Shown one piece after another: positions 44,282 to 51,087 of a stretch of DNA of 64,000 nucleotides (position 1 is its first letter; each line of letters opens with the position of its first letter). A program made the translations under genes and the position numbers. The stretch is from Escherichia coli (GTDB lineage: Bacteria; Pseudomonadota; Gammaproteobacteria; Enterobacterales; Enterobacteriaceae), in assembly GCF_030384885.1 (NCBI RefSeq), contig NZ_CP128613.1; one strand, given 5' to 3'. The notes beneath the pieces are model-generated. The model worked only from the letters and a program-made list of their open reading frames with translations. It was not told the DNA's origin and searched no databases.

Positions 44282-46711
44282 TCATGAATACTTTTTCGTC
44301 CGTCGCGTCGGTGCGGTATTTGCCGGATCATCCGGCCAGACGTGTTTGGGATAACGCCCTTTCATCTCTTTTTGCACCTCGCGATACGCTCCTTTCCAGA
44401 AGGCGCTCAAATCTCGTGTGATTTGCAGCGGCCTTTGGGCAGGAGAAAGCAACTCCAGCACCAGCGGCACGCGCCCCTGGGCGATCGTCGGATTGGTGGC
44501 CTCGCCAAACATCTCCTGCATTCTCACCGCCAGCGCGGGCGGGTTATCTTCATGGTAACGAATGGCGATCCGGCTTCCCGTCGGCACAGTGTAATGCGCA
44601 GGCAATTCACTATCCAGACGTTGCTGCATCCCCCAATCAAGTAATCCGCGTAGCGCCTGATAAATATCGAGTGATTTCAGGCCGCGTAGCGAATGTACGC
44701 CTGTCATATGCGGCAGGAGCCACGTTTCCAGCGTCGCCAACAAACTTTCATCATCAACCGCTGGCCAGTCATATTCCGGCAACCACTTTGCGGCGCATAA
44801 CAAACGCAAGCGTAGCTGTTCCGCTTCCGCCGTCCAGTTGAGCACGCTTAAACCTTTATCACGAATGCCGTTAAGCATCGCCTGATGCAACTCGTCTTCC
44901 GAGGGTTTCGCCAGCGGCTGCACTTTCACCGTCAAATGACCGATTTGCAGCCGACGCCACGCTTTCAGCGTACCTTGCGCGTCATCCCACTCCACAGTGT
45001 CAGACTGCTGTACCAACTGCGGACAGCGTTGTACTAATTCATCGATATCGACCGGTAGCGCCAGTAAAATCCGCGCATCCGGCGAGGCGCTGCCCTGCAA
45101 TAATAACGGTGCGATCAACCATTCGTGGCGGCTGAGCGCATCATCGGCATCGAGCATTGCCCCCATGCCGTTTGCCAGTTGATAGCGCCCCTCTTGCCCA
45201 CGGCGGCGAGCGATGCGATCGGCAAACGCTCCGGCAAGTAACGGTGCGATAAGCGAACTGTCTGCCTCACCGCCGCGTACGTTTAAGCGCTTTAACAGTT
45301 GCTGGCTACGTTGCTGCCAGGCAGGTTGATTGCGCGAAAACGCCACGCCCAGATCGATATTGCCCATCCGTGGTGGCTCTTCGAGAATAGCGGCAATTTT
45401 TGCAGCGGTAGCAGCTTCGTCGTCGCTCTTTGCGCTCACCAGCATTGCCGCTAAACGCGGATCGTTACCCAGCGTCGCCATTTTCTGCCCTTTCGTGCTT
45501 AGCCGTTCACCGTCCATCGCCCCCAGCATCCGCAACAGGCGTTTCGCGGCCTGTAAATTCACGGCTGGCGGTTGATCCAGCCAGCTCATCTGCGTCGGAT
45601 CGCTGCATCCCCATTGCAGTAATTCCATCAGCAAACCGGAGAGATCGCTTTGTAATATTTCTGGTTCACTTTGCGCGGAGGCGCGTTCTGCTTGTTCTTT
45701 GGCGATTAAATGTAAACAGATCCCCGGCTCCAGACGTCCGGCACGCCCGGCGCGTTGCGTCATTGATGCCTGGCTAATGCGTTGGGTAATCAGCCGCGTT
45801 AGCCCCGTGCGCGGATCAAAGCGCGCCACACGTTCCTGAGCACAATCCACCACCAGACGAATACCTTCGATGGTTAAACTGGTTTCAGCAATATTGGTTG
45901 CCAGCACCACTTTGCGCATCCCTTCTGGTGCCGGAAGGATCGCTTTTCGCTGATCGTTCAGCGACAACGCGCCATACAGCGGGCAGAGCAACACATCACT
46001 ACCGATGCGCGAAGCCAGTTGTTCCTGAACGCGCTGAATTTCTCCGACACCAGGTAAAAATAACAGTAATGAGCCGCTTTCCTGATGCAGCAATTCGGCG
46101 GTGGCAACCGCCACGGCTTCATCAAAACGCTGATGAGCGAGCAGCGGTAAATATCGGCGTTCAACCGGAAATGAGCGCCCTTCTGAGATGACGACGGGCG
46201 CTTCTGGCAGCATCTGCTGCAAGCGGTCATTGTCCAGCGTAGCCGACATAATCAGTAGTTTAAGGTCATCACGCAGACCTTGTTGCACATCGAGTAACAG
46301 CGCCAACGCCAGATCCGCCTGCAAGCTGCGCTCATGAAACTCATCGAGGATCACCAATCCAACGCCGCTCAGTTCAGGGTCACGCTGGATCATGCGCGTC
46401 AACACGCCTTCGGTAACTACTTCCAGGCGAGTATTTGCCCCGACACAGTTTTGCGCGCGCATCCGGTAGCCTACCGTATCACCTGTTTTTTCGTTAAGCA
46501 GTTCCGCCAGTCGTTGCGCAACGTTACGCGCCGCCAGGCGACGCGGCTCCAGCAGGATAATTTTTCCGTTAATGCCGGGATGCGCCAGCAGTTGCAGCGG
46601 CAGCCAGGTTGATTTCCCGGCCCCGGTCGGCGCACTTAATAACACCTGCGGTGCACCATCGAGGGCAGCAAGTAACTCAGGTAAGACGGCGGCAACGGGC
46701 AACGACGACAC
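44282..46711 (-). CDS. hrpB: ATP-dependent RNA helicase HrpB (DEAH-box); probable GTG start
   Basis: Track ORF 44282..46756; GAGKST Walker A and DEFH box; start placed at in-frame GTG giving MSSLPVAAVLPELL (809 aa as I recall). Confidence 0.88.
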   Translation of the reverse strand: MSSLPVAAVLPELLAALDGAPQVLLSAPTGAGKSTWLPLQLLAHPGINGKIILLEPRRLAARNVAQRLAELLNEKTGDTVGYRMRAQNCVGANTRLEVVTEGVLTRMIQRDPELSGVGLVILDEFHERSLQADLALALLLDVQQGLRDDLKLLIMSATLDNDRLQQMLPEAPVVISEGRSFPVERRYLPLLAHQRFDEAVAVATAELLHQESGSLLLFLPGVGEIQRVQEQLASRIGSDVLLCPLYGALSLNDQRKAILPAPEGMRKVVLATNIAETSLTIEGIRLVVDCAQERVARFDPRTGLTRLITQRISQASMTQRAGRAGRLEPGICLHLIAKEQAERASAQSEPEILQSDLSGLLMELLQWGCSDPTQMSWLDQPPAVNLQAAKRLLRMLGAMDGERLSTKGQKMATLGNDPRLAAMLVSAKSDDEAATAAKIAAILEEPPRMGNIDLGVAFSRNQPAWQQRSQQLLKRLNVRGGEADSSLIAPLLAGAFADRIARRRGQEGRYQLANGMGAMLDADDALSRHEWLIAPLLLQGSASPDARILLALPVDIDELVQRCPQLVQQSDTVEWDDAQGTLKAWRRLQIGHLTVKVQPLAKPSEDELHQAMLNGIRDKGLSVLNWTAEAEQLRLRLLCAAKWLPEYDWPAVDDESLLATLETWLLPHMTGVHSLRGLKSLDIYQALRGLLDWGMQQRLDSELPAHYTVPTGSRIAIRYHEDNPPALAVRMQEMFGEATNPTIAQGRVPLVLELLSPAQRPLQITRDLSAFWKGAYREVQKEMKGRYPKHVWPDDPANTAPTRRTKKYS

Positions 46712-46784
46712 AAAACGCTCCAGAGGGTTAACATTCTTCGCGCCACATTGTAGCATCGCGGTAATGCATAACCGAGTACCTCAC

Positions 46785-48034
<1,250 letters not shown>

Positions 48035-49630: not shown

Positions 49631-49689
49631 GCTATGATTAGCCGCTATTTTTTTGTCCTGAATGATGTTTGACACTACCGAGGTGTATT

Positions 49690-51087
49690 ATTTTTACCCG
49701 AGTCGCTAATTTTTGCCGCAAGGTGCTAAGCCGCGAGGAGAGCGAAGCTGAACAGGCAGTCGCCCGTCCACAGGTGACGGTGATCCCGCGTGAGCAACAT
49801 GCTATCTCTCGCAAAGATATCAGTGAAAATGCCCTGAAGGTAATGTACAGGCTCAATAAAGCGGGATACGAAGCCTGGCTGGTTGGCGGCGGCGTGCGCG
49901 ACCTGTTACTTGGCAAAAAGCCGAAAGATTTTGACGTGACCACTAACGCCACGCCAGAGCAAGTGCGCAAACTGTTCCGTAACTGCCGCCTGGTAGGTCG
50001 CCGTTTCCGTCTTGCTCATGTCATGTTTGGCCCAGAGATTATCGAAGTCGCAACCTTCCGTGGACACCACGAAGGTAACGTCAGCGACCGTACGACCTCC
50101 CAACGCGGGCAAAACGGCATGTTGCTGCGCGACAACATTTTCGGTTCCATCGAAGAAGACGCCCAGCGCCGCGATTTCACCATCAATAGCCTGTATTACA
50201 GCGTGGCGGATTTTACGGTCCGCGATTACGTTGGTGGCATGAAGGATCTGAAAGACGGCGTTATCCGTCTGATTGGTAACCCGGAAACGCGCTACCGTGA
50301 AGATCCGGTACGTATGCTGCGCGCGGTTCGTTTTGCCGCCAAATTGGACATGCGCATCAGCCCGGAAACCGCAGAACCGATCCCACGCCTGGCAACCTTG
50401 CTAAACGATATTCCTCCGGCGCGTTTGTTTGAAGAATCTCTGAAACTGTTGCAAGCGGGCTACGGTTACGAAACTTATAAACTGCTGTGTGAATACCATC
50501 TGTTCCAGCCGCTGTTCCCGACCATTACCCGCTACTTTACGGAAAATGGTGACAGTCCAATGGAGCGGATCATTGAGCAGGTGCTGAAGAATACCGATAC
50601 GCGTATCCATAACGATATGCGCGTGAACCCGGCGTTCCTGTTTGCCGCCATGTTCTGGTACCCACTGCTGGAGACAGCACAGAAGATCGCCCAGGAAAGT
50701 GGCCTGACCTATCACGACGCTTTCGCGCTGGCAATGAACGATGTGTTAGACGAAGCCTGCCGTTCACTGGCGATCCCGAAACGTCTGACGACGTTAACCC
50801 GCGATATCTGGCAGTTGCAGTTGCGCATGTCCCGCCGTCAGGGTAAACGCGCATGGAAATTACTCGAACATCCGAAGTTCCGCGCCGCTTATGACCTGCT
50901 GGCACTGCGTGCTGAAGTAGAACGCAACGCCGAGCTACAACGTCTGGCGAAATGGTGGGGTGAGTTCCAGGTTTCTGCGCCGCCAGACCAAAAAGGGATG
51001 CTTAACGAACTGGATGAAGAACCGTCACCGCGTCGTCGTACTCGTCGCCCGCGCAGACGTGCGCCGCGCCGTGAGGGCACCGCATGA
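49690..51087 (+). CDS. pcnB: Poly(A) polymerase I; start assigned to an AUU codon
   Basis: Track ORF 49669..51087; E. coli pcnB is known to initiate at AUU, so start placed at the ATT codon preceding [12 protein letters not shown] (465 aa); [17 protein letters not shown] nucleotidyltransferase motif. Confidence 0.85.

Follow-up and report, generated by a model that had tools for sequence, protein, structure and literature searches.

A GTG start for hrpB and a compact, conserved divergent promoter with putatively overlapping -10 elements between hrpB and thpR in Escherichia coli

INTRODUCTION

In the bacterial bidirectional promoters defined by Warman et al., divergent transcription starts lie 7-25 bp apart and the -10 elements of the two promoters overlap (bioRxiv 10.1101/2020.01.31.928960; PMC12825309). 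The available portions of these sources give 18 bp as the preferred spacing between the two starts, with 10 and 23 bp also common (10.1101/2020.01.31.928960; PMC12825309), and they describe small deviations in spacing when the distance from a -10 element to its start is not 7 bp. Polymerase is described there as binding these promoters in either orientation, with one binding event excluding the other (PMC12825309). As far as the class is described in that available text, the region between hrpB and thpR in E. coli resembles it, in that T-12/A-11 of one -10 hexamer are paired with A-11/T-12 of the other. It departs from the commonest 18-bp arrangement, as the hexamer geometry derived in our analysis implies a spacing of 23 bp, and the hrpB start lies 8 nt from its hexamer, compared with the 7 nt given for the class. 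The two promoters also differ from each other, with hrpB relying on a putative extended -10 element and thpR having a -35 element. The available text of Warman et al. does not name the hrpB/thpR pair, neither its names nor its coordinates appear among the listed entries of the PMC12825309 supplement, and a literature search combining hrpB and ligT matched only unrelated plant-pathogen hrpB papers.

For the HrpB protein, the E. coli crystal structures 6EUD and 6HEG hold an 809-amino-acid (aa) form with the N-terminus MSSLPV, and the Walker A motif of the Pseudomonas aeruginosa protein occupies residues 27-34 (PMC7237152). The DNA that we analyzed (the window) is a stretch of 64,000 nucleotides that matches E. 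coli 2013C-4282 at 100% identity, the identity of K-12 to the window being 94.6%. A sequence-only reading of the window had proposed that hrpB starts at an in-frame GTG inside its longest open reading frame (ORF), which would leave a 73-bp divergent promoter region shared with thpR. That reading named orthologue alignment, inspection of the ribosome-binding site, and mapping of 5' ends as checks, and it held that conservation of the 15 codons upstream of the GTG would speak against the proposal. Here, we follow up these points with orthologue comparisons, family models, and published transcript starts.

RESULTS

Gene structure and reference annotation

The longest hrpB ORF (44282..46756, - strand) opens with an ATG and encodes 824 aa. 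Its 16th codon is a GTG (46709..46711, - strand) in the sequence ...CTGGAGCGTTTTGTGTCGTCGTTGCCC..., and reading from this codon to the stop in the ORF frame gives a coding sequence (44282..46711, - strand) of the same extent as the RefSeq one, with 2430 nt (809 aa plus stop) and the product MSSLPVAAV.... On the opposite strand, the RefSeq coding sequence of thpR (46785..47315, + strand) begins with an ATG at 46785 and encodes 176 aa (MSEPQRLFF...), and the divergent intergenic region (46712..46784) comprises 73 bp. The trimmed 809-aa product, the 73-bp gap, and all the coordinates and lengths proposed by the sequence-only reading were thereby reproduced. Because about 3 of 64 codons are ATG, GTG, or TTG, an in-frame GTG within 15 codons of the first start of an ORF has no significance alone, and what gives the hrpB GTG its significance is conservation and context rather than mere presence.

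In the RefSeq annotations of three genomes, namely the window strain, K-12, and the divergent isolate AF16, hrpB is 2430 nt long and lies 73 bp from thpR. As in the window, K-12 hrpB (b0148, NP_414690.4; 162105..164534) starts at a GTG at 162105, encodes 809 aa, and is separated by 73 bp from thpR/ligT (b0147; 161501..162031). The PGAP annotation of the window strain has a gene structure identical to the K-12 reference, and the intergenic regions of the two differ at 2 of 73 bases, both in the thpR leader. The GTG start is thus already known from the reference annotation, and its proposal is correct but ordinary. The exact 809-aa window protein is found on 53 contigs in public collections under the name HrpB; an exact-sequence look-up found the 824-aa window sequence to be absent from these collections, and at least one GenBank record carries an 824-aa call belonging to the same cluster as the 809-aa HrpB.

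HrpB scored 1505.7 bits against NF008662 (NCBIfam, equivalog; cut-off 1053) and 1264.7 bits against TIGR01970 (NCBIfam, equivalog; cut-off 546), with position 1 of the profile aligned to residue 16 of the 824-aa ORF, which is the GTG codon, for the former or to residue 19 for the latter. ThpR scored 354.4 bits against NF011704 (RNA 2',3'-cyclic phosphodiesterase; cut-off 184), residues 1-176 corresponding to profile positions 1-176. The GTG-started window protein has the same N-terminus as 6EUD and 6HEG and aligned to them over its whole length, from the GTG residue onward (bit score about 1711); these structures have the K-12 sequence, relative to which the window protein shows scattered substitutions, and a recombinant construct is no proof of the native N-terminus. 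Walker A numbering in the GTG-started E. coli protein is the same as in the P. aeruginosa protein (27-34). Direct start-site data sets added little: the TRAINSPOTTER N-terminomics supplements hold no entry for hrpB, b0148, or an hrpB N-terminal peptide, and the rows for hrpB (162105) and ligT (162031) in the INRI-seq start-site table consist only of zeros/FALSE, which is uninformative rather than negative. The evidence as a whole supports the GTG residue as the probable native N-terminus of HrpB.

Ribosome-binding site and conservation of the start region

Within the sequence directly before the hrpB GTG, ...CTGGAGCGTTTT, a Shine-Dalgarno GGAG (46718..46721, - strand) lies 6 nt upstream of the start codon. 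The predicted duplex between the 16S 3' end and the 20 nt before the GTG had an energy of -6.2 kcal/mol, against a background for 20-mers of the window with a mean of -1.9 kcal/mol, of which 5% reach -6.0. The corresponding value before the ATG at 46756 was -2.4 kcal/mol, and no Shine-Dalgarno site was found there. Inspection of the ribosome-binding site thus favored the GTG.

We aligned the hrpB 5' regions of 80 Enterobacteriaceae species, a sample that extends from Escherichia to Buttiauxella and Cedecea. A GTG occupied the aligned codon in 80/80 species, and the reading frame together with HrpB residues 1-3 was likewise kept in all 80. GGAG was located 6 nt upstream of the GTG in 77 of the 80 species and 5 nt upstream in the remaining 3, a conserved core at 5-9 nt as in canonical Shine-Dalgarno-led initiation. 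By contrast with the start itself, the 15 codons upstream contained an in-frame stop in 30/80 species, 18 of these stops being only 6 codons upstream of the GTG (e.g., Klebsiella, with an in-frame TAA at this position, Raoultella, and some Kluyvera), and in 22/80 species the stretch from the closest preceding stop to the GTG contained no ATG, GTG, or TTG. Of the 80 species, 41 had a 73-nt gap to thpR, 21 a 72-nt gap, and 13 a gap of 74-200 nt, the thpR start of the other 5 not being located by pattern; the difference between 72 and 73 nt is a 1-nt indel and therefore breaks the frame of any N-terminal extension.

Entropy by codon position, computed among the 41 species with the 73-nt gap, was 0.58/0.44/0.64 at positions 1/2/3 over the 45 nt upstream of the GTG, compared with 0.52/0.21/1.28 over hrpB codons 2-31 and 0.61/0.32/1.32 over thpR codons 2-31. 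This contrast between upstream and downstream sequence indicates that codon periodicity begins exactly at the GTG. Parts of the upstream sequence did nevertheless recur: 40/80 species had the ATG of the long ORF in frame at codon -15, and the peptides 'MLQC' and 'VNPLE' of the extension were found again in Escherichia, Citrobacter, and Salmonella. The codons of 'VNPLE' correspond to the thpR -35 element (GTTAAC) and the Shine-Dalgarno site (CTGGAG), and the upstream conserved DNA consists of the -10 core, the thpR -35 element, and the Shine-Dalgarno site. The orthologue alignment therefore sided with the GTG, and the conservation of upstream codons that would have told against it was only apparent. 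The 45 nt are partly conserved, but as DNA and not as codons, and because they lack codon periodicity and undergo frame-breaking 1-nt indels, this conservation leaves the GTG unrefuted.

Mapped transcript starts

Published K-12 transcript starts were placed on the window by the relation window = 208816 - K-12 coordinate, and all the start data come from K-12 and Klebsiella, relatives of the window strain. The main K-12 hrpB start was mapped at 162077(+) by Cappable-seq (PMC4782308 supplement) and by Kim et al. 2012 (92 reads, 28-nt untranslated region [UTR]; PMC3415461), and was listed as 162076 in SMRT-Cappable-seq (PMC6131387). In the window, it falls on a G at 46739, defining a 28-nt hrpB 5' UTR (46712..46739, - strand) identical in sequence to that of K-12. 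The thpR start at K-12 162053(-) was recorded by SMRT-Cappable-seq for the operons b0147|b0146 and b0147|b0146|b0145 (PMC6131387) and by Kim 2012 (19 reads, 22-nt UTR; PMC3415461); the corresponding position is an A at 46763 and the 5' UTR is 22 nt (46763..46784, + strand). Transcript reads from this start in K-12 cover thpR-sfsA and thpR-sfsA-dksA. In K. pneumoniae, the hrpB start at 171989(+), with a 29-nt UTR, and the ligT start at 171967(-), with a 22-nt UTR (PMC3415461), have the same divergent layout as in E. coli. Published 5' ends therefore bear out the view that the 73-bp gap is a divergent promoter region shared with thpR, as it contains two divergent promoters by the mapped starts.

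The main hrpB mRNA begins 17 nt downstream of the ATG at 46756 (K-12 162060) and consequently lacks this codon. A second K-12 start of hrpB, a distal one at 161665(+) within thpR, was also detected (Cappable-seq, PMC4782308; SMRT-Cappable-seq, PMC6131387); its transcripts carry the ATG, and full-length hrpB reads originate from it in K-12 (SMRT-Cappable-seq, PMC6131387). The -10 sequence of this distal promoter is TGATAT in the window strain versus TAATAT in K-12, with loss of the key A at position 2.

Promoter elements and the 10-bp core

For thpR, the promoter scan identified a -35 element TTAACA (46728..46733, + strand) and, after a 17-bp spacer, a -10 element TAGCAT (46751..46756, + strand) that precedes the mapped thpR start by exactly 7 nt, with 9/12 matches; this pair was the only sigma-70-like match in 46500..47000. 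Since the scan needs a -35 match, it missed the hrpB promoter, for which a putative extended -10 element, TGcTACAAT (46747..46755, - strand; hexamer 46752->46747, TG 46755-46754), was read by eye and checked against the transcript start. The hexamer ends 8 nt before that start, and the best -35 candidate seen by eye, TCGGTT, matched at 2/6 positions. A weak or missing -35 element is usual for extended -10 promoters. With TG one base upstream of the hexamer and only a weak -35 candidate, the hrpB sequence would thus qualify as a promoter of the extended -10 type.

A 10-bp core, ATGCTACAAT as written on the - strand (46747..46756), contains both -10 hexamers, one on each strand, which have the central TA in common. 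On the hrpB strand the core reads TG-c-TACAAT, and its first six bases, taken on the thpR strand, are TAGCAT; TACAAT (-) and TAGCAT (+) overlap by their first two bases, TA/TA at 46751-46752. The exact ATGCTACAAT was present in 77/80 species, and the remaining three carried TACACT or TATACT variants. Among the 77 core-bearing species, 56 had TTAACA at the 17-bp spacing, and the others had variants such as TGACTT, TTAACT, and TTATCA. From their sequence and position, TGcTACAAT and TAGCAT are putatively the functional promoter elements.

The ATG that opens the 824-aa ORF (46754..46756, - strand), which we judge not to be a start codon, is embedded in this core: it is complementary to the final three bases of the thpR -10 element and supplies the TG of the putative hrpB extended -10 element. 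The ATG is therefore conserved without being a start, because it lies inside the ATGCTACAAT promoter core.

The spacing of the divergent starts is 24 bp in K-12 and 22 bp in Klebsiella, both relatives of the window strain, and these distances fall within the range of 7-25 bp. The -10 elements on opposite strands overlap, with their key bases paired. Taken together, these features support the hrpB/thpR pair as a probable member of the bacterial bidirectional promoter class.

DISCUSSION

Our analysis supports translation of hrpB from the GTG at 46711, with the 45 nt up to the ATG at 46756 being noncoding and the gap to thpR serving as a compact back-to-back promoter, a reading to which we assign a probability of about 0.94. 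The start proposed by the sequence-only reading is thus upheld by the orthologues, the ribosome-binding site, and the published 5' ends. In the arrangement that we propose, hrpB would be transcribed leftward from TGcTACAAT and translated from the GTG by way of the GGAG Shine-Dalgarno site 6 nt upstream, yielding the 809-aa DExH-box NTPase HrpB. The 45 nt between the GTG and the ATG would hold the 28-nt hrpB leader, the transcription start at 46739, and the extended -10 element. In the opposite direction, thpR, with sfsA and sometimes dksA, would be transcribed to the right from 46763, with TTAACA-17 bp-TAGCAT as promoter. By analogy with the described class, polymerase binding in the two orientations would be mutually exclusive.

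Translation of an 824-aa HrpB from the ATG at 46756 would fit the open frame from that codon, its in-frame recurrence at codon -15 in 40 of the 80 species, the 824-aa GenBank entry, and the presence of the ATG on transcripts from the distal K-12 start at 161665. Against this, three independent data sets place the main start 17 nt past the ATG, the codon has no Shine-Dalgarno site, stops interrupt the extension in 30/80 species, 1-nt indels break its frame, and codon periodicity is absent upstream of the GTG; the family models and the PDB proteins begin at the GTG, and the promoter core explains the conservation of the ATG. We consider this start to be close to refuted and barely credible. A compromise, in which the protein is mostly 809 aa long with a minor 824-aa isoform translated from transcripts of the distal promoter in genera with an uninterrupted frame (Escherichia, Citrobacter, and Salmonella), draws on the full-length hrpB reads from 161665(+) in K-12 and on a frame that is open through the extension in about half of the species. 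It too meets the lack of a Shine-Dalgarno site at the ATG, together with the lack of protein-level constraint on the extension and the replacement of the K-12 distal -10 sequence TAATAT by TGATAT in the window strain, and we hold it to be very improbable. The chance that translation begins still further downstream appears negligible: a TTG is indeed present at codon 4 in E. coli, but GGAG would then be 15 nt upstream, which is too distant, all 80 species retain the frame and residues 1-3, and NF008662 aligns from the GTG residue.

A different question is whether the two promoters are simply independent neighbors, with the core conserved on other grounds, for instance as a transcription-factor site. 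The mapped starts are at the canonical 7 and 8 nt from the hexamers in both E. coli and Klebsiella, and the conserved 10-mer is the exact union of the two hexamers, so that an extra conserved palindrome is unnecessary as an explanation. Although the pair's absence among the listed entries of the PMC12825309 supplement would agree with independent neighbors, we regard such independence as improbable and prefer a bidirectional promoter with overlapping -10 elements.

As the reference annotation is already at the GTG, the start codon itself has little import beyond annotation hygiene. Taking the longest ORF makes hrpB 15 codons too long, and what gives these codons their seeming conservation among close relatives is solely the promoter and ribosome-binding DNA that they overlap; a naive check of upstream codon conservation could therefore mislead. 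The right answer comes instead from stops, frame-breaking indels, codon periodicity, and mapped transcript starts.

Beyond annotation, the hrpB/thpR locus would illustrate cleanly, and with deep conservation, how the -10 elements of a bidirectional promoter can overlap. The near-universal ATGCTACAAT core may be kept to tie the expression of the HrpB RNA helicase to that of the RNA 2',3'-cyclic phosphodiesterase operon thpR-sfsA(-dksA), a tentative idea that we consider doubtful. If it is true, mutually exclusive polymerase binding would give rise to coupled or anticorrelated expression of functionally related RNA-metabolism genes, beyond a chance overlap of promoters.

Start codons of thpR and pcnB

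The longest open reading frame for thpR, which encodes 247 aa (46572-47315, + strand), begins at an ATG lying within the 5' end of hrpB. The real protein comprises 176 aa from 46785 and, in a profile search, matches NF011704, the NCBIfam model for ThpR, from end to end. The longest thpR frame is too long in the same manner as that of hrpB. A further in-frame ATG (46764-46766, + strand), read from the window sequence, lies seven codons upstream of the thpR start, and RefSeq annotates the 176-aa protein despite this candidate. Because the ATG occupies position +2 of the thpR mRNA, with the transcription start site (TSS) placed as mapped in K-12, a message translated from it would be almost leaderless. 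The codon is common to the window strain and isolate AF16, and the alignment shows ATT or TCAT at this site in K-12 and most species.

The gene pcnB is known for its non-canonical AUU start. In its start region (49669-49692, + strand), the ORF list begins the gene at TTG 49669, giving 472 aa, as opposed to the RefSeq start at 49690, where the window carries ATT preceded by GAGGTG. pcnB is a further case in which the longest frame misleads about the start.

Additional transcription starts of hrpB and ligT

A second, distal hrpB TSS has been reported in K-12 at 161665(+), within thpR and antisense to it (PMC4782308, PMC6131387). Its equivalent in the window falls at ~47151 (- strand), 440 nt upstream of the hrpB GTG, with a -10 element at 47163-47158 (- strand). 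In K-12 this element reads TAATAT and is formed by the antisense strand of the codons for H-I-T in the second HxT motif of ThpR, whereas the window carries TGATAT, a change that is synonymous in thpR. Since the key A is lost, the distal promoter may be weaker in the window strain than in K-12. In K. pneumoniae (NC_009648), the table of Kim et al. 2012 (PMC3415461) includes a second TSS for ligT (thpR) at 171989(-), which shares its coordinate with the hrpB TSS on the + strand; this entry could be an artefact or could reflect an additional promoter of thpR.

Mosaic structure in isolate AF16

Isolate AF16 is mosaic in its hrpB/thpR region (NZ_OZ547176.1, 2913-3516). It matches the window at 100% identity across the 73-bp intergenic region and at 93.5% in the hrpB 5' end, compared with only 72% in thpR (51% at third codon positions). 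The divergence sets in within the first codons of thpR, a pattern that suggests a recombination import with its boundary at the promoter.
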